DNA of 64,000 nt from an uncultured archaeon (GCA_964458565.1 CAYWJO010000002.1:1-64000), one strand, 5' to 3'. Counted from the first letter of the stretch, positions 8,292 through 50,835 are shown. Notes: a model not told the origin generated them from the letters alone. Numbers and translations: made by a program.

Positions 8292-9188
8292 GTGAAAAAC
8301 TTGAAAGTGGACTTGCTATGTGCCCATTGCTTGCTTGAACGAGCCATCAAGCAGGTGCAGCTTGCTACTGATGACCCTACTCTTCAATTCGATGTCATCA
8401 CTGAAATGCTCACTATGCTAGCAGAGAATCTAGATGAGAACTCAGTACCAAGTCATATTGGCACTCAGAGAGACCTCCTTGTTCAGAAGATGACTGGAAA
8501 GGATCCGTATGAATCACTGAAACGAGACTCCAATGTTATGGCATTAAAGATTTTCCCGGAACTAAAACAATTAGTGAGTGAAGCTAATACGCCGGAGCTA
8601 CGATTCCGCCAAGCTAGTCTTATTGCTGCAGCAGCAAATGCGATAGAGTTTGATGTATCTGGTCGCGATTTTAGTCTTGATGAGCTGAGAGAAATACTTG
8701 ACTCTGTCGAGGCGGACCTTGCTATTGACGAGGTTGATGAATTTAGAACATTGTGTCAAGATGTCGATGAAGTGCTCTATCTTATGGATAATGCTGGAGA
8801 GGTTGTTTTGGATATGATTCTCATTTCTGAGATAAAGCGATTAGGACCCAAAGTAATCGCAGTTGTTAAGGGTGGTCCCGTTCTCAATGATGCAACAATG
8901 ATAGACGCTCATGAAGTGGGTTTAGATGAATGCGCAGATGTAGTGATTGAGACGGGCGCGGCAGCTATAGGTGTGAACATAGAACGCGCCTCTGAAGAGT
9001 TCAAGACCCTTCTGTACAATGCTCCACTAATCGTCGCAAAAGGGATGGGAAATTACGAATCCATGACGGAGTTTAAACTGCCTAATCCTGTTGTACACAT
9101 TCTGAGAACAAAATGTCTTCCAGTATCCAGACATATTGGAGTTCCTAGGGACAAGAATGTAGTAATAATAAGACGAGGTACAAAATAA
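8292..9188 (+). CDS. DUF89/ARMT1-like metal-dependent phosphatase
   Basis: CAHC, DPYESLK, DNAGE, LNDAT, AKGMGNYE and KC motifs. Confidence 0.92.
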   Translation: MKNLKVDLLCAHCLLERAIKQVQLATDDPTLQFDVITEMLTMLAENLDENSVPSHIGTQRDLLVQKMTGKDPYESLKRDSNVMALKIFPELKQLVSEANTPELRFRQASLIAAAANAIEFDVSGRDFSLDELREILDSVEADLAIDEVDEFRTLCQDVDEVLYLMDNAGEVVLDMILISEIKRLGPKVIAVVKGGPVLNDATMIDAHEVGLDECADVVIETGAAAIGVNIERASEEFKTLLYNAPLIVAKGMGNYESMTEFKLPNPVVHILRTKCLPVSRHIGVPRDKNVVIIRRGTK

Positions 9189-41671: not shown

Positions 41672-41939
41672 TTTTAATTCACTCCATCACGTGTTTGTGC
41701 ATTTGGCAGTCTGGAGTTTGAGCTCCTCTTTGCTTCTTCTGCAATTGCATACAAGCTTTCTCGAGAAGATGTATCCACTCCAAAACTGCGCGTGATAATA
41801 TACGATATTGTAAATAGCAGTATATTTGAGTATCGGGAGTTTGAGTTTTAATCGTCAATTGCCGTAATTTTGTCTAAAGCGGCGCCCTTTAATACCACAC
41901 TCAGCTTTGTCTGGATTAGTGCATATTAGAGGTTCTTCA

Positions 41940-43256
41940 ATGGATGAAATGTCACTATCAAATACATGCGATAATGTTGAACCAATTTGGGAATTCGAAG
42001 GTGACATTGACCCCTCTACTGAGATACCTCATGGACGTCAGATTCTCATCATCAGCAAAGATCAATCATTTCTCACACACGGTATACATAAGTTCCCAGC
42101 TAAGTTTTTCCCAGAGCTACCAAGATATCTAATCCGTCGGTACTCGAACGAGAATGATGTTGTCCTCGATCCGATGTGTGGAAGTGGTACTGTTGTTCTT
42201 GAAACCCTCCTAAATAATCGTCATGCCATTGGAATCGACATCGACCCCATCGCAAAATTGGTAACAAAAGTAAAAACAACTCCGATTGATGAAGAAGTCC
42301 TTCGATCATTATCCGAGCTTCTTACAACAAGGGTTTTACAACGATACAGGACTAAATACTCTCCAAACATACCTGAGTTTAGCTATCGGGACAATTGGTT
42401 TAGACCATTTGTATTGAAAGAACTAGGGATTATACGAGACACAATTCACGAAATTTCATATCCTGTTTCCAAGGAGTTGTATGATTTTCACAGGACTATC
42501 TTCTCATCAATCATTAGGGATGTATCGAACGCGGATCCACATTGTACTCGGACAGTAATCAGGAAAAAACAAATTCGAAATATCTCCCCTGGTGATACTT
42601 TGATGCACTTCAAACAAGCATTGGTCAATCAGATAGATGCGATGGTGGAATTTACTAATCTTTTCATTGAGAAAGAAATGAAACAATGTGAGATTCCCGA
42701 TACGGATGCAATTGAAACCGGAATAGATGAAAATACAATTAATCTGATTGTAACCTCTCCCCCATATATTAACGCAGTTGACTATCCTCGCACTCATCAA
42801 CTAGAGATGTATTGGTTGGGTCTTGTGCAAGATGGGCCTCTATCGAAGATGAAACGTAAGTATATTGGAACTGAAACAGTGTACAAAGATGAATATGAGA
42901 AATTAAGACAATTAGGCTATAGCTCTCTTGATCCCATTCTTTCCCGCATTTATGCGATTGATTCTCGAAGGGCGTTTATCACATACAAATTCTTCAAAGA
43001 AATGAAAACTCAACTCAAAGAGATGTATCGTATTCTTCAGCCAGGAGGGTACTATTGTCTGGCTATTGGAAACAATGTGATTCGAGGAATAAGAATACGT
43101 TCTCATGATATTCTTACTGAAATTGCCACATCCGAGGATGTTGGATTCATCTTGGAACGGATGTTTTTTTCAGGTCTCATCCGTCATTTCATAAAGATAC
43201 CCCGTCGAGAACGAATGAGTGGAGAATGGGTATTAATTCTCAAAAAGCTAGAATAA
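41940..43256 (+). CDS. DNA N4-cytosine/N6-adenine methyltransferase (motif I before motif IV), solitary
   Basis: THGIHKFPAKF, LDPMCGSGT and VTSPPY motifs. Confidence 0.9.
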   Translation: MDEMSLSNTCDNVEPIWEFEGDIDPSTEIPHGRQILIISKDQSFLTHGIHKFPAKFFPELPRYLIRRYSNENDVVLDPMCGSGTVVLETLLNNRHAIGIDIDPIAKLVTKVKTTPIDEEVLRSLSELLTTRVLQRYRTKYSPNIPEFSYRDNWFRPFVLKELGIIRDTIHEISYPVSKELYDFHRTIFSSIIRDVSNADPHCTRTVIRKKQIRNISPGDTLMHFKQALVNQIDAMVEFTNLFIEKEMKQCEIPDTDAIETGIDENTINLIVTSPPYINAVDYPRTHQLEMYWLGLVQDGPLSKMKRKYIGTETVYKDEYEKLRQLGYSSLDPILSRIYAIDSRRAFITYKFFKEMKTQLKEMYRILQPGGYYCLAIGNNVIRGIRIRSHDILTEIATSEDVGFILERMFFSGLIRHFIKIPRRERMSGEWVLILKKLE

Positions 43257-43929: not shown

Positions 43930-44036
43930 AAATACAGTCTATCACATTGATGCCAATACTTATCAAGGAATCTCCTATATAATTGCAAAAATCATGGAGG
44001 TATAAAACACAATGGCAACAACTCTCAGGTGGGATC

Positions 44037-44270
44037 ATGTTTGCCCGACGTTCATTTTTAGCTCTACCTCCCTCTGCGAAGTTCCTATACGTGCTTCTTA
44101 AAGAACGACATAGGATTTCCAGGCAAGATCTGATAGACATCACATTCTTGCCACCTCGTACAGTGAATTATGGCCTAAGCAGACTAAAGGACCTTGGTCT
44201 AGTTCAAGATATGGAGCATGCAGAGGACAAGAGAGAACGAGTGTATGAACTTACTCGGAAACCAATGTGA
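44037..44270 (+). CDS. Small MarR-like winged-helix protein
   Basis: LPPSAKFLY, LPPRTVNYGLSRL and DKRERVY motifs. Confidence 0.85.
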   Translation: MFARRSFLALPPSAKFLYVLLKERHRISRQDLIDITFLPPRTVNYGLSRLKDLGLVQDMEHAEDKRERVYELTRKPM

Positions 44271-45759: not shown

Positions 45760-46578
45760 TTGGTCTTAAAGGATAAACTTGGTGAGTATGATTACCTCTT
45801 TAGAGTAATACCATATGGTGAGAACCAGATGCCTGATAGAGCTCAATCAGAACTATATGCTTCAATAGCGACCCTCGATCAACTCAAGAAACTTTATGAT
45901 GTTGGCGCAGTTGATCCCCGGTCTTACCAGCGTGAAACTGAGGGATTACTTACTGAGGTTAGATTCCATCTTGATGAACTAAGACGAGTTGGGCTTGATG
46001 TTGGAAGATTTATTGAAACTGAACGGCTCTCAGACCAGTTTCCAGACGCTCTTCATATTCTTCAGTTGAGAGATACAAATCCATCAACCTCAGTTCAGGG
46101 TATGACAAAAGAGGAATATTATGATTATATCGGACTTTCCGTTCTCGATGTTGTCACTGCTAATTCCTCTAAAGGATTAATGGGATTGGCTGAGTTGATT
46201 GTTGAGGTAGTGCGAAAACTACCTGAATTGAAGTCAGTAAGTTACAATGATGTTATTGAAGCGGTAAATATGGTCGCTCAACATGGTTTAATCCCTGGTA
46301 TTAGGACTCTCAAAGGTGGAGTAAAGGTTGTTGAGCTTCGGCCTTTGGAATTACGCCGAGATCAGGCTGATGTAATCAATATTGCTGCCTCTAAGGGATT
46401 TGTTACTGTAGAAGAAATAATGCTTGAGTTCAAATGGTCTGAGGATCATGCGCGTCAAGTATTGACTAGTCTAGTCGATGCTGGAATGGCCGTTGCTGAT
46501 ATGAGGTTTTCCACAGGTGGCAGATACTGGTTCCCCGGTTTGCGTTCGAGAGACTCAAGTAGTCAAACGCATCCATAA
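45760..46578 (+). CDS. ESCRT fusion: Vps28 N-terminal core-like domain plus Vps22/Vps36 (EAP30) tandem winged helices
   Basis: N: SELYASIATLDQLKKLYDVGAVDPRSYQRETEGLL...FPDAL; C: GLMGLAEL, RPLELRRDQ, GFVTVEEIMLEFKWSEDHARQVLTSLVDAG...RYWFPGL. Confidence 0.82.
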   Translation: MVLKDKLGEYDYLFRVIPYGENQMPDRAQSELYASIATLDQLKKLYDVGAVDPRSYQRETEGLLTEVRFHLDELRRVGLDVGRFIETERLSDQFPDALHILQLRDTNPSTSVQGMTKEEYYDYIGLSVLDVVTANSSKGLMGLAELIVEVVRKLPELKSVSYNDVIEAVNMVAQHGLIPGIRTLKGGVKVVELRPLELRRDQADVINIAASKGFVTVEEIMLEFKWSEDHARQVLTSLVDAGMAVADMRFSTGGRYWFPGLRSRDSSSQTHP

Positions 46579-46579
46579 T

Positions 46580-47296
46580 CTAAAGTACCAGACGAACTGC
46601 TCCCTTCTGCTTGTCAATCCACTCTGCTAATTCTCTTTCTACAAGAAGCTTGATCACATAATGAATTTCTTTCTCAGGAAGTTTAGCAAAATTTTGTTTA
46701 TTTTCTTGAATCACAATAGACTTCACATCTAATCGAGTTCTACCATTTTCTAAAGCCCATTGATAGATTATATCTGCCCATTCTTCCAAGAAACGCCAAT
46801 ATACTCTCAATTGACGCTTTTTCCCCTCCATCCAAATTCCTACTTCTTTCTCAACAATCTTGTCGCCAATTTTTCTATAAGCATCGGCCTTGTTCTGGAT
46901 GTCTTTGAATGGATATTCTGACACAAACTTTGAGAAGCTAAGGATATGAATTGAGTATTCTTCACACCATTCGAGAACGAAATCGGACCACTCGGATGCC
47001 CACATCTGTAAATCCTCCTCTCTTACAGGAATGTGGTACATCCACTCAGTCTGTGATATGTCTCCCCAGCTTGGTAGTAACCGAGGCTCTTCTACAATCA
47101 TTTCTATTTCTGATTTAGTTTCAACAATACTACCTTTCTCTATCTCAGCTTCTGTTTCGATGATAGGCATTTCTTCGTGAATCATTGATTCCGTTTCAAT
47201 TTGAGTTTCAGTCTCTTGTTCTTCAACTATACCTTCTTTGGCATCGCTCTTATCAACTGACTTTTGTTTTCGCCTGATTCGCTCTCTCTCTCCCAC
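46580..47296 (-). CDS. vps25: ESCRT-II Vps25 homolog with acidic N-terminal extension
   Basis: WASEWSDFVLEWC; VYWRFLEEWADIIYQWALENG; LVERELAEW. Confidence 0.88.
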   Translation of the reverse strand: MGERERIRRKQKSVDKSDAKEGIVEEQETETQIETESMIHEEMPIIETEAEIEKGSIVETKSEIEMIVEEPRLLPSWGDISQTEWMYHIPVREEDLQMWASEWSDFVLEWCEEYSIHILSFSKFVSEYPFKDIQNKADAYRKIGDKIVEKEVGIWMEGKKRQLRVYWRFLEEWADIIYQWALENGRTRLDVKSIVIQENKQNFAKLPEKEIHYVIKLLVERELAEWIDKQKGAVRLVL

Positions 47297-47299
47297 AGG

Positions 47300-48532
47300 C
47301 TAGGAACCCTCCGCCCAATCACTATACTTCTTCACGTCTTCCGGTGACGTTGCTGGTCTAATGTTATCAATGGCGTCTAGAAAATCCTTTCGTGAAACGG
47401 TTCTAAGATCCAGAATCTCGGTGTCATCATCCATTCTTCCGGTGCTTTCAAGTTCTCTAATTGGTTCCATAGCTGCTTCCCGACATACTATACTTAGATC
47501 TCGACCGCTGTATCCTTCTGTTAGCATAGCCATCTCATTAAAATCAACATCAGGCGCGATATCAACACCCTCAATATGTATCTCAAAAATCCGTCTTCTA
47601 GCAATCTTGTCAGGAAGTGGAACATGAATGCGTTTCTCAAAGCGGGAACGTAGAGCAAAATCAATCTCCCATGGTAAATTCGTCGCACCAATGAGAGTGA
47701 TTCTTTCATCTGCTTCACTAGCTAACCCTTGAAGCTCCGTCAACAGTTGTGTCTTTAATCTACGTTCTCCACCAACATCGTCTCCAGACCTCGCTACCCC
47801 AATTGAGTCCAGTTCATCAATAAATATAATCGCAGGCTGCATGCTTCGCGCTCGTTCAAATAGCATCTTGACAAGTTTCTCCGATTCTCCCAACCACTTA
47901 CTTACAATATTTGCTGCTGAAACATTGAAGAATGTTGCACTCACTTCTGCAGCAACCGCACGAGCTATCAACGTTTTCCCGCATCCTGCAGGTCCATAAA
48001 GTAGGATTCCTTTCCATGGTTGTCTTGCTTTACCTCTGAACAACTCAGGGTGTTTCATTGGGGCTACGATTGCCTCTGTGATTGCTTGTTTTGCCTTCTC
48101 AAGTCCTGCTACATCTGCCATACTTCCATGTGGTGTTTCAGTAATGATGGTGTCTGCAATCATATCTCCAAGTCTTTTTCCATCCTCATCATCAGTAGAG
48201 GGGACCGGTCTATCTGACTCAGAGGTTCTTGTATCTTCAACAATTGTTGTTGGGAGTGTGCTTATCCCATCTATTGGCCCTCTTGATTTCTTTTTAATTC
48301 CTGACAGATATCTGACTCTATCAACACATTCCTGAGCTCTATCCAAGTAGTGTTTCCGAACAGAACGTAATGTTGCTGCGTTAGAGAGCTTAATCAATAT
48401 CTTACTCGCTTGCAAGTATTGTCTTGCAGCTTCCTTTTTCATTCCCCTTCTGTCTAGATCGATGGCTTTCTCAAGGAGTTTCCTGAGTCCTTCATCGAGT
48501 CTATTACTACCTGAATCTGACATTTTCTTCAC
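47300..48532 (-). CDS. vps4: Vps4 AAA+ ATPase with MIT domain
   Basis: KAIDLD...YLDRAQE MIT domain; DVAGLEKAK; PWKGILLYGPAGCGKT; SKWLGESEKLV; IFIDELD; RFEKRIHVPLP. Confidence 0.95.
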   Translation of the reverse strand: MKKMSDSGSNRLDEGLRKLLEKAIDLDRRGMKKEAARQYLQASKILIKLSNAATLRSVRKHYLDRAQECVDRVRYLSGIKKKSRGPIDGISTLPTTIVEDTRTSESDRPVPSTDDEDGKRLGDMIADTIITETPHGSMADVAGLEKAKQAITEAIVAPMKHPELFRGKARQPWKGILLYGPAGCGKTLIARAVAAEVSATFFNVSAANIVSKWLGESEKLVKMLFERARSMQPAIIFIDELDSIGVARSGDDVGGERRLKTQLLTELQGLASEADERITLIGATNLPWEIDFALRSRFEKRIHVPLPDKIARRRIFEIHIEGVDIAPDVDFNEMAMLTEGYSGRDLSIVCREAAMEPIRELESTGRMDDDTEILDLRTVSRKDFLDAIDNIRPATSPEDVKKYSDWAEGS

Positions 48533-48662
48533 TTCTTCTTAGGATTGTTCTGTTATGAATCAATGTGTATTACTCTGCCATTACCTTTAACGTTACGAAG
48601 GTTTAAACGATGTTTTCTCATGTCTTGTTTGAGGATAAAATTTCTCTGTGCGGTGAATCCTT

Positions 48663-49271
48663 TTGGGTACATTCAAAAAAGCATGGTCTTGGGGTCGTAA
48701 AAAACCCGACATATCTGAGGTTTCTAGTCAATTACGTATTCTAATAAAACAGTTAGAACGTCAGAGAAATAAATTGGAAAAAGAGGAACGTGACACGAAA
48801 GCTCGTGCTATTCGTGCGCGACAAGCAGGTCAGAATGAAGCATATGTGACCTATGCAACTGAAATGGTTCGATTTCGTCGCTATGTTCTTTCAATCGATA
48901 AATCCCGCTTACAGATGTTGAAGATTTTGGCTCATCTAACCCGGGCACAGACAACTGCTAAAGCAGCGAAAGCTATGGAAGATGTTGCTAAAATCCTTGG
49001 AATGCTTGGGGACTCCATGGATGCCTCAAAGGTCATAGAGAATGCTGATGAAATTGCTCGTCAAGTTCAAGAGTTCGAAATCGAATCTGGTATTGCTGAT
49101 GATGCATTCGATTCTGCTATGCCTGAGATTTCTAGTGAAGACATCGCTGAGGCTATGGCTGAAATCGACGCTGAAGTTGGTGGTAAAGCAACTGTTGGAA
49201 AACGTCCGGCGACTGAAGCGGAAGCATTAGAGGATGACATTAAAGCATTGGAACGAGAGCTAGGTGTGTAA
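48663..49271 (+). CDS. ESCRT-III subunit, Vps2/24/46 (CHMP1-3-like) class
   Basis: N-terminal amphipathic MGTFKKAWSWG; basic helical hairpin KQLERQRNKLEKEE...AGQNEAYVTYATEMVR; acidic C-half; MIM1-like tail LEDDIKALEREL. Confidence 0.9.
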   Translation: MGTFKKAWSWGRKKPDISEVSSQLRILIKQLERQRNKLEKEERDTKARAIRARQAGQNEAYVTYATEMVRFRRYVLSIDKSRLQMLKILAHLTRAQTTAKAAKAMEDVAKILGMLGDSMDASKVIENADEIARQVQEFEIESGIADDAFDSAMPEISSEDIAEAMAEIDAEVGGKATVGKRPATEAEALEDDIKALERELGV

Positions 49272-49275
49272 CGCT

Positions 49276-50835
49276 CTATAGATCATATCTTCTTTCTGCA
49301 GAGTGTCTCTCAATTTCTCGACGTGCATAATATGAATCTCGCATCAGGCTACGATATCTTCTGATAAAATCTTCAGGAACGATTCTTCCAGCTCTCAACA
49401 TATGAATAGTTTCCCGAATTGCGTCATCAAGCGCTCTTGCATCTCTTCTCATATTATCAAGATTTGGTCTTGTTTGACGCTCGTAATATTGTGGCGGTGT
49501 TCTCTGGCCTATTAGTTGTTCCAAATGGTCGCTGAACCGTTGCTGACTACCATAGTTTTGTGAATATCCAACTTGACGGTCTCTTGACCATTGATCAGTC
49601 TGCGGTTGCGGATAATATCTCGAAGTATCTTGTGCATAACGAGGTCCTGTCATTTTGGAATTCAGTATTGAATATACAATTCCCTCAATTCTTAGTCGAA
49701 TATCGCTGATGTTGGTGTCGGTCTGTTCTAACTTTCTCACACGCTGCATGTCAGTCTGAACATATCGTTCAAATCTACGTGCGATTTCAATGTAGTCTGG
49801 AAGAACTCTTTTCGTTTGATCACTGCAGATAATTTTAAGATCTCCCTGTTTCAACTTCAAAACCAATCGTTTTCGAAGTCGACCATCTTCTTGTATATCT
49901 TTCAGATACAGAAGTGGAAAATCAAAAACGATGTCAGTTTTTTTCCTTACCAACCCCGTTTCAGCAACGAAAATCATTCTTTTATTTGTGATAAAGAGAC
50001 TTCCTGTAGCTTTGTCATTCTTGATAAAATCGCTTCCTGCAAGAGTTATTGGTGAGAACGCGCTCACAGGTAGTTCATTGACTGAAAGTTCAGAGTATTC
50101 GTAAAAGGGTGAGAATTTATCTCTATAATACTTCAACCCATCTAGTTGTTTCTTTACGTCATCCATAGTCAATCGTGCTTGAACCAACGTTTCTTCCACA
50201 AGAGCTCGGTAGCTTATTCCAAGTTCAGTAATTCGATTAACAACTCCTTCAATAAAGGGAAATTGAGATGGACTCCAAGAAGACTGATCAATCAATCCTT
50301 TAGTTTCTGCAACCATCTGTTTAGCTACAATCTCGGCGTGATTTCCAATTCGCTTCTTTATCGCTGGGAATTCAGCATGTATTTCTTCAATTCTCTCTTC
50401 CAACCACTTGTAATGAAGGAAATTAGCCATCCTTAGAGATACCAATAATCTCTTTCCAGCGACCATTCGATTTGTGAATTCCTTAAGTTTCGTGTGTCCA
50501 TATTGCAGGCTCATTATCGCACTACGCATATCATGAGCTAACTCTCTTTGCTTCTCTGATATGTGTACGATTCTACTTGAATGACAGTGAGGGCAAACCT
50601 CCATTGTCCTCTTACCAATCCCAAGGTTCTCAGAGTCGCACTCGGGACATTTCAAGGGATTTTCACCTGGCAATGGGACTCCAAGATTGTGCTGGCAATC
50701 TTTGCACATTCGGTATTCTCTAACTCTCTGTTCCAAACATGCTGAGCAAATTGTAGTTCCGCAGTCCTCACACATATGAGTTGCAGACTGATTCTCACAT
50801 TCCTTGCATGTTAGGTTTGAGGAATCTGCGGTCAT
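49276..50835 (-). CDS. B-box/zinc-finger, helical, PH(GRAM/GLUE-like) and Vps23 steadiness-box protein (ESCRT-I-related)
   Basis: CKEC...CEDC...ICSAC plus three more CxxC; GSLFITNKRMIF; C-terminal LDDAIRETIHMLRAGRIVPEDFIRRYRSLMRDSY. Confidence 0.78.
   Translation of the reverse strand: MTADSSNLTCKECENQSATHMCEDCGTTICSACLEQRVREYRMCKDCQHNLGVPLPGENPLKCPECDSENLGIGKRTMEVCPHCHSSRIVHISEKQRELAHDMRSAIMSLQYGHTKLKEFTNRMVAGKRLLVSLRMANFLHYKWLEERIEEIHAEFPAIKKRIGNHAEIVAKQMVAETKGLIDQSSWSPSQFPFIEGVVNRITELGISYRALVEETLVQARLTMDDVKKQLDGLKYYRDKFSPFYEYSELSVNELPVSAFSPITLAGSDFIKNDKATGSLFITNKRMIFVAETGLVRKKTDIVFDFPLLYLKDIQEDGRLRKRLVLKLKQGDLKIICSDQTKRVLPDYIEIARRFERYVQTDMQRVRKLEQTDTNISDIRLRIEGIVYSILNSKMTGPRYAQDTSRYYPQPQTDQWSRDRQVGYSQNYGSQQRFSDHLEQLIGQRTPPQYYERQTRPNLDNMRRDARALDDAIRETIHMLRAGRIVPEDFIRRYRSLMRDSYYARREIERHSAERRYDL

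Follow-up and report, generated by a model that had tools for sequence, protein, structure and literature searches.

A Thorarchaeota ESCRT locus with a Vps28-type hairpin on Vps22 and a zinc-ribbon/PH steadiness-box protein predicted to be its partner

Five contiguous genes at positions 45760-50835 of a 64,000-nucleotide stretch of DNA from an uncultured archaeon (GCA_964458565.1 CAYWJO010000002.1:1-64000; the whole stretch is called the window below) encode components of ESCRT (endosomal sorting complexes that are required for transport), in which parts of ESCRT-I and ESCRT-II are permuted: a hairpin of the Vps28 N-terminal type (Vps28N) sits on Vps22, and a PH domain and zinc ribbons sit on a steadiness-box (SB) protein. 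The window belongs to a 3.73 Mb Thorarchaeota metagenome-assembled genome (G000; 93% complete). Very probably, the locus represents the canonical ESCRT machinery of Thorarchaeota, acting as a five-step chain, with a fusion gene that arose by a vps28/vps22 deletion in a lineage without ubiquitin, E2 and UEV-bearing Vps23. A preliminary description of this DNA had named the five genes and their permuted domains, and in both respects it was borne out: the five adjacent open reading frames (ORFs; P0001-P0005) are real and lie at the positions given there, each named domain was recovered by profile or structure comparison, and the Vps28, SB and PH parts were all matched when checked domain by domain (PDB profile search, Foldseek). 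The genes and their domains are as follows.

45829..46578, plus strand: P0001, Vps28N-Vps22 fusion; ORF from TTG at 45760, likely start ATG 45829 (M24)
45829..46074, plus strand: Vps28 N-terminal-type helical hairpin and short helices of P0001 (ORF residues 24-105)
46108..46545, plus strand: Vps22/EAP30 core of P0001, one helix and tandem winged helices (residues 117-262)
46580..47296, minus strand: P0002, Vps25, tandem winged helices (Pfam ESCRT-II and PDB profile match)
47300..48532, minus strand: P0003, Vps4 AAA ATPase (MIT, AAA, lid, Vps4_C); likely start ATG 48523
48663..49271, plus strand: P0004, ESCRT-IIIA (Vps2/24/46 class); TTG start, 130-bp spacer, divergent from vps4
49276..50835, minus strand: P0005, Znr_CC_PH_SB protein, ESCRT-I-like adaptor, orthologue of ThorAB25_08990 'SB'
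50563..50835, minus strand: Cys-rich zinc ribbons of P0005 (residues 1-91; five CxxC pairs)
50113..50562, minus strand: three-helix coiled-coil bundle of P0005 (residues 92-241, from the structure model)
49777..50070, minus strand: PH domain of P0005, GRAM/GLUE type (residues 256-353)
49282..49461, minus strand: Vps23-type steadiness-box hairpin of P0005 (residues 459-518)

To judge from its sequence, P0001 consists of a head orthologous to Vps28-N and, joined to it, a Vps22 without the N-terminal helical domain. The Vps22 part is recognised by Pfam EAP30 at residues 115-247 (E=2.8e-15, 57.1 bits, cut-off 26.8), a match that covers profile positions 83-218 of 219; the canonical N-terminal helical domain (EAP30 positions 1-80) is absent, whereas the Vps22 of another Asgard genome (G029) matches positions 2-218. 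The head yields a weak match to the N-part of Pfam VPS28 (residues 30-110, E=0.003, below cut-off), and in a profile search against the PDB, the four next matches after human Vps22/SNF8 (9e-20) are Vps28-N chains of ESCRT-I core structures (E ~0.2). Comparison with the separate Asgard proteins delimits both halves: residues 29-102 align with residues 11-84 of the full-length Vps28 of G029 (41% identity, E=5e-17), and residues 117-261 with residues 97-242 of the Vps22 encoded downstream of that Vps28 (39% identity, E=2e-38), while the junction (residues 103-116) is a low-confidence linker in the AlphaFold2 (AF2) model. This model (mean predicted local distance difference test score, pLDDT, 75) comprises a confident hairpin (helices 23-47 and 53-77, pLDDT ~90), a floppy linker, a helix and two winged helices. 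With Foldseek it retrieves Vps22 (3cuq_A, 1e-9) and Vps36 first, and also, from the ESCRT-I headpiece structures of human and yeast, the Vps28 chains (6vme_U/X, 2f6m_D; TM-score 0.65-0.73). The Vps28 C-terminal four-helix bundle, which binds ESCRT-II, is missing from P0001 in both the AF2 model and the Vps28 alignment. An alignment of 27 sequences (P0001 and 26 orthologues) places the true start at M24, that is, at 45829.

Since a deletion between neighbouring genes would yield exactly such a Vps28 head on a truncated Vps22, the most likely origin of the fusion gene is a deletion in the Thorarchaeota order that joined adjacent vps28 and vps22, an event that would have removed the Vps28 C-terminal domain (CTD) together with the Vps22 N-terminal helical domain. 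In two Asgard genomes (G029 and G038), UEV-Vps23, full-length Vps28 and full-length Vps22 follow one another, co-directional and tightly packed, with a 95-aa ORF separating Vps28 and Vps22 in G029. Our Asgard sample contained 201 genomes, namely 44 of the window's own family (including G000) and 157 others; among these, a single-frame match over the whole P0001 profile was confined to the window's family (f1) and a sister family of the same order (f2). In the other genomes, the Vps22 match mostly begins at about profile position 65-113, and in a few at 19-57. As a side observation, one f1 genome carries the fusion gene as three pieces in different frames (G155:C13:104460-105193; profile positions 1-76, 67-150 and 148-244), a sign of frameshifts in the assembly or else of a gene copy in decay.

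P0005, the second permuted protein, has only sub-threshold Pfam matches (zinc ribbon/B-box, bacterial PH, Vps23_core); its G029 orthologue passes the cut-off for Pfam bPH_3. The AF2 model (pLDDT 83) resolves zinc ribbons (residues 1-91), a three-helix bundle (92-241), a seven-strand PH fold with a C-terminal helix (256-353), a disordered linker (395-455) and a terminal hairpin (459-518, pLDDT 92-97). The five CxxC pairs of the zinc ribbons are kept in 90-100% of the family alignment, and the PH part bears an invariant G-x-L-x-x-T-x-x-R-x-x-F GRAM/GLUE signature (G278-L280-T283-R286-F289); Foldseek likewise returns PH, GRAM and GLUE domains, including the GLUE domain of Vps36 (2cay, TM-score 0.58). 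By analogy with such domains, the PH domain would serve as a membrane or cargo binder. In the PDB, the family profile finds yeast Vps23 (2p22_A, 8e-6; 2f66_A, 2.6e-5), TSG101 (0.002) and Vps37B (0.02), and the zinc ribbons resemble only RING, PHD, FYVE and B-box fingers, at E 4e-5 or weaker. A UEV domain is absent from P0005, whose N-terminus consists of zinc ribbons instead, and so are winged helices in the AF2 model, such that the PH domain resides on the SB protein and is not joined to winged helices as in Vps36.

The architecture of P0005 is widespread, the Znr_CC_PH_SB family being present in 176 of the 201 sampled genomes. Named homologues of both P0001 and P0005 are nearly all from Candidatus Thorarchaeota; for P0005, identity is 78% to the nearest database relatives and 50-58% to most Thorarchaeota copies. 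The two genes stay together: in 34 of the 43 other family genomes they share a contig, 2.7-3.2 kb apart and on opposite strands, and in two further ones the fusion gene is fragmented with its position relative to the PH-SB gene unchanged.

Both hairpins are modelled as mutual partners. A complex model of P0001 residues 24-115 and P0005 residues 452-519 (three runs, three controls) reached an ipSAE of 0.81 (best of the three controls, 0.01), a mark attained by 58 of 80 solved complexes and by 2 of 110 mismatched pairs. The contacts agree to 100% across the three runs, with partner pLDDT values of at least 81, and they map to the best-conserved motifs of the two hairpins, that is, to the Thorarchaeota-invariant residues A37, T38, L42, S55, E59 and L63 of P0001 and to the conserved F490-I491-x-x-Y494-R495-x-x-M498-R499 of P0005 (an FIRRYR-type motif). 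The modelling thus supports the pairing of the SB of P0005 with the Vps28N hairpin of P0001, as the preliminary description had proposed.

A rather unlikely alternative is that the hairpins are not mutual partners at all: the Vps28N hairpin would drive Vps22 homodimerisation, in place of the lost helical contact between the Vps22 and Vps36 N-termini, and the PH-SB protein would self-associate or bind another partner, acting in parallel rather than upstream. This would suit the absence of the canonical Vps22 N-terminal helical domain from the fusion as well as the self-interaction of Thorarchaeota Vps22 in yeast two-hybrid assays, which PMC9192718 reports; moreover, eukaryotic headpieces are three-hairpin bundles, and a 1:1 pairing may therefore not be the native stoichiometry. 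Against it stand the margin of the heteromeric model over its controls with contacts on conserved motifs, the retention of the two genes about 3 kb apart in the 34 family genomes mentioned above, and the nature of the fusion head, which is a Vps28 orthologue, the natural partner of Vps28 being a Vps23-type SB.

The preliminary description had further noted that ubiquitin, E2, UEV and Vps28-CTD were lacking in the window, and this holds for the whole genome as searched with Pfam models at 93% completeness. Own-genome Pfam searches (ubiquitin, UQ_con, VPS28, Vps23_core) were empty in control genomes likewise and are uninformative alone, for which reason a phylum-wide search and Asgard-derived queries were added. 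Ubiquitin (PF00240) was found in 0 of 44 family genomes (hence also in none of the 43 besides G000), whereas 139 of the 157 other Asgard genomes, which served as positive control, contained it. Asgard-derived queries for ubiquitin, E2, RING and UEV-Vps23 retrieved nothing in G000 at E values up to 10, and Asgard Vps28 queries matched solely the head of P0001, apart from a weak Vps28-CTD candidate (C65:9740-11860, E=0.003) that was rejected as an ABC transporter.

The label 'ubiquitin-independent' fits the absence of eukaryote-type ubiquitin, E2 and UEV from these searches, and has to be qualified in that tags of the SAMP/Urm1 type are possible, as four proteins of G000 pass the Pfam cut-off for the ThiS/MoaD family and E1-like ThiF proteins are present too. 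In the corresponding scenario, which we consider improbable, the system would not be tag-independent, and the three zinc ribbons of the PH-SB protein would read a SAMP/Urm1-type beta-grasp tag on cargo, replacing the ubiquitin-UEV pair. PMC10936438 mentions, in this vein, that the zinc fingers of yeast Vps36 bind ubiquitin. Yet ThiS/MoaD and ThiF genes serve sulfur transfer and are nearly universal, and none of them lies within the ESCRT locus; the zinc ribbons are unchanged in lineages with true ubiquitin and UEV-Vps23, and their profile likeness is restricted to the weakly matching fingers listed above.

Among the remaining genes of the locus, P0002 is readily assigned to Vps25 (Pfam ESCRT-II/Vps25, 5e-14, 53.1 bits against a cut-off of 27; Odinarchaeota Vps25 structure 7pb9, 2.7e-30). 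P0003 matches AAA (1e-39) and Vps4_C (24.8 bits, cut-off 21.3) and, below the cut-off of 30, MIT (19.9 bits). P0004 belongs to Pfam Snf7 (4.9e-14, 52.8 bits), and since its best PDB match is CHMP2A (1.5e-7), followed by CHMP3 and CHMP1B, it is classified as ESCRT-IIIA, the label that its orthologue ThorAB25_09000 also bears in PMC9192718 (ESCRT3A). NCBIfam returned only CdvC and CdvB matches for the locus proteins, all below cut-off. A second, unlinked Snf7-family gene (G000:C4:103948-104430, plus strand; L002:1450-2106) is closest to Heimdallarchaeota ESCRT-IIIB and Snf7; this ESCRT-IIIB gene (Vps20/32/60 class) is flanked by an inositol-monophosphatase-family gene and a HAD hydrolase gene. 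In eukaryotes, Vps25 nucleates the Vps20/Snf7-like class, i.e., IIIB, and with its own ESCRT-III being IIIA and IIIB encoded elsewhere, the locus does not constitute a self-contained system. Separately, residues 1-75 of Vps25 form an acidic, low-complexity N-terminal extension rich in Glu, Ile and Thr that is probably disordered, and a similar acidic head is seen in the orthologue ThorAB25_09020 as given in the supplement of PMC9192718.

A subunit outside the locus may also participate. G000 encodes a second EAP30/Vps22-like protein of 778 aa (G000:C3:136052-138391, minus strand; L001:6050-8386) with a coiled coil (Spc19-like match), an Ig-like CarboxypepD_reg domain and winged helices at the C-terminus, and its gene has an SPFH/flotillin gene (L001:8487-9821) as its immediate upstream neighbour. 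Frames of 690-820 aa with a matching C-terminus in other family genomes indicate that this paralogue is conserved, and a protein-atlas look-up returned only its own Thorarchaeota cluster. Possibly, it is a subunit in the position of Vps36 or a flotillin-linked adaptor. The preliminary notion of a 'three-protein ESCRT-I/II' is accordingly incomplete, given this EAP30 paralogue encoded elsewhere.

From these parts, the following chain can be proposed. P0005 would be the upstream adaptor and analogue of Vps23, its zinc ribbons and GRAM/GLUE-type PH domain replacing the UEV domain. Its SB hairpin is predicted to pack onto the Vps28-N-type hairpin that heads P0001; if this is true, ESCRT-I-like and ESCRT-II-like parts would be linked without a Vps28 CTD or a Vps36 GLUE bridge. 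The Vps22 winged helices would then bind Vps25, as suggested by homology and by yeast two-hybrid interactions published for other Asgard lineages, whereupon Vps25 would recruit ESCRT-IIIB (C4:103948-104430) and IIIB in turn the ESCRT-IIIA of the locus. Finally, Vps4 would recycle the polymer through its MIT domain.

In its boldest form, to which we would give somewhat less than an even chance, this chain amounts to a short-circuited ESCRT-I/II, in which a Vps28 head welded to Vps22 by deletion and a single SB-SB contact couple a PH/zinc-ribbon membrane or cargo sensor to Vps25 and ESCRT-III without ubiquitin, UEV, Vps28-CTD and Vps36. If true, the resulting set of four to six proteins would be the smallest complete upstream-to-scission ESCRT pathway known, and it would lend itself to in-vitro reconstitution and to studying what ESCRT had sorted prior to ubiquitin.

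Several points weigh against the proposed chain. Archaeal lipids lack phosphoinositide 3-phosphate, which bears on lipid binding by the PH domain. The favourable complex model may merely mirror the likeness to solved Vps23-C:Vps28-N complexes (2F6M, 2P22, 6VME), and the reported self-interaction of Thorarchaeota Vps22 implies that the hairpin could also, or instead, homodimerise. The 778-aa paralogue is a possible unrecognised ESCRT-II subunit, and the genome completeness of 93% limits all claims of absence. Lastly, co-regulation of the five ESCRT genes is assumed; their strand pattern (+ - - + -) requires at least four transcription units and hence describes a cluster, not a single operon.

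Whereas the preliminary description had left room for an undescribed wiring, the cluster and both fusion architectures are already known, and the window contains another orthologous copy. Hatano et al. (2022, Nat Commun, PMC9192718) synthesised ThorAB25_08990 SB, 09000 ESCRT3A, 09010 Vps4, 09020 Vps25 and 09030 Vps22 of Thorarchaeota AB_25 and tested them by yeast two-hybrid; according to that article, ThorAB25_07240 ESCRT3B is unlinked to the 08990-09030 block and Thorarchaeota seemingly lack ubiquitin. There, the prose mentions 'Vps28' though the protein set contains no Thorarchaeota Vps28, and the printed termini of 'SB' and 'Vps22' share start and end motifs with P0005 and P0001. The AB_25 cluster thus resembles the window in its five genes, an ESCRT3B elsewhere and the lack of Vps28 and ubiquitin; it stems from a separate genome and shows no functional difference. 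Makarova et al. (2024, mBio, PMC10936438) define the Vps22# family cog.002769 as Vps22 with a fused SB, and cog.011556, the Asgard-specific Znr_CC_PH_SB family (three zinc ribbons, coiled coil, PH and SB), as a proposed ESCRT-I component with a membrane-associated PH domain. These domain architectures are identical to those of P0001 and P0005, respectively; the assignment of P0005 to cog.011556 rests on architecture and the ThorAB25_08990 orthologue rather than on an asCOG profile. Relative to the available part of that paper, our analysis adds the Vps28-N orthology of the SB in the fusion, its confinement to one order in this sample, and the model of the SB-SB pairing.

Compared with the eukaryotic ESCRT-I headpiece (Vps23-Vps28-Vps37; 2F6M, 2P22, 6VME), the window shares the Vps23-type and Vps28-type hairpins, and with ESCRT-II (Vps22-Vps36-Vps25x2; 3CUQ, 1U5T) the tandem winged helices of Vps22 and Vps25 as well as a GLUE-like PH domain. 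In contrast to both, it has no UEV, Vps37, Mvb12, Vps28 CTD or Vps36; its PH domain is carried by the Vps23-like subunit instead of Vps36, and its Vps28 head and Vps22 form one covalent chain.

A related arrangement within the Asgard sample is a ubiquitin-ESCRT supercluster of about 20 kb in another family (L019/L021, G029:C17:151000-173373). At G029:C17:151-172 kb, it shares the core of the window, namely Vps25 and Vps4 encoded on the same strand, ESCRT-III on the opposite one and a convergent Znr_CC_PH_SB gene, and it additionally holds a second ESCRT-III, E1, E2, ubiquitin, RING, UEV-Vps23, full-length Vps28, the 95-aa ORF and full-length Vps22. No Vps22 was found upstream of its Vps25; Vps22 is instead located downstream of Vps28. 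Its ubiquitin, E2, RING, UEV-Vps23, full-length Vps28 and 95-aa ORF have no detectable counterpart in the window genome. Since G029 possesses the core beside ubiquitin and ESCRT-I genes, the Thorarchaeota locus looks like the common core from which the ubiquitin branch has been lost and to which one gene fusion has been added. This also argues against the idea of the PH-SB protein as a ubiquitin-free substitute, as full-length members occur in most ubiquitin-bearing Asgard families and, in G029, some 12 kb separate the PH-SB gene from E1, E2, ubiquitin, RING, UEV-Vps23 and full-length Vps28.

That the arrangement represents an ancestral, pre-ubiquitin state of Asgard ESCRT rather than a derived reduction, as might be suspected from Znr_PH_CC_SB being regarded as probably ancestral in Asgardarchaeota (PMC10936438), has little probability, because single-frame Vps28N-Vps22 is restricted to f1 and f2 while the other sampled families keep separate genes, and because ubiquitin is so frequent outside the window's family (139 of 157), an argument by parsimony. 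Published Asgard phylogenies suggest that the Thorarchaeota order is nested among lineages with split genes and ubiquitin.

Research treats Asgard ESCRT systems as the prokaryotic root of membrane trafficking in eukaryotes, and Thorarchaeota are the one case in which ESCRT-I-like and ESCRT-II-like parts occur without ubiquitin, which bears on whether the coupling to ubiquitin is essential or an add-on. Published work (Hatano 2022; Makarova 2024) already draws this ubiquitin-free contrast. What the present locus contributes is the Vps28-N orthology of the head of 'Vps22', on a Vps22 deprived of its N-terminal helical domain; the restriction of this fusion, in our sample, to one order that is itself the ubiquitin-free one; and a testable SB-Vps28N contact predicted with a clean margin over controls.

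Some minor features of the two loci deserve mention. In the G029 supercluster, an insert of about 9.5 kb between Znr_CC_PH_SB and E1 harbours an unassigned DUF4350-like ORF, a cobW-like and a sugar-isomerase-fold gene, a DEAD helicase, a class I tRNA synthetase and a zinc-ribbon-bearing Yip1-domain gene. Elsewhere in this supercluster, two small ORFs are devoid of Pfam matches, one of 130 aa in the gap between RING and UEV-Vps23 and the 95-aa ORF between Vps28 and Vps22, whose product may be a free-standing steadiness-box protein. Unremarkable genes flank the ESCRT cluster in the window, encoding a tRNA synthetase of class II (Asp/Asn type), a protein with a beta-lactamase fold and a TldD/PmbA pair; just upstream of the tRNA synthetase gene lie an N6/N4 DNA methylase-like gene (41907-43256, plus strand) and a small MarR-type winged-helix gene (43983-44270, plus strand).

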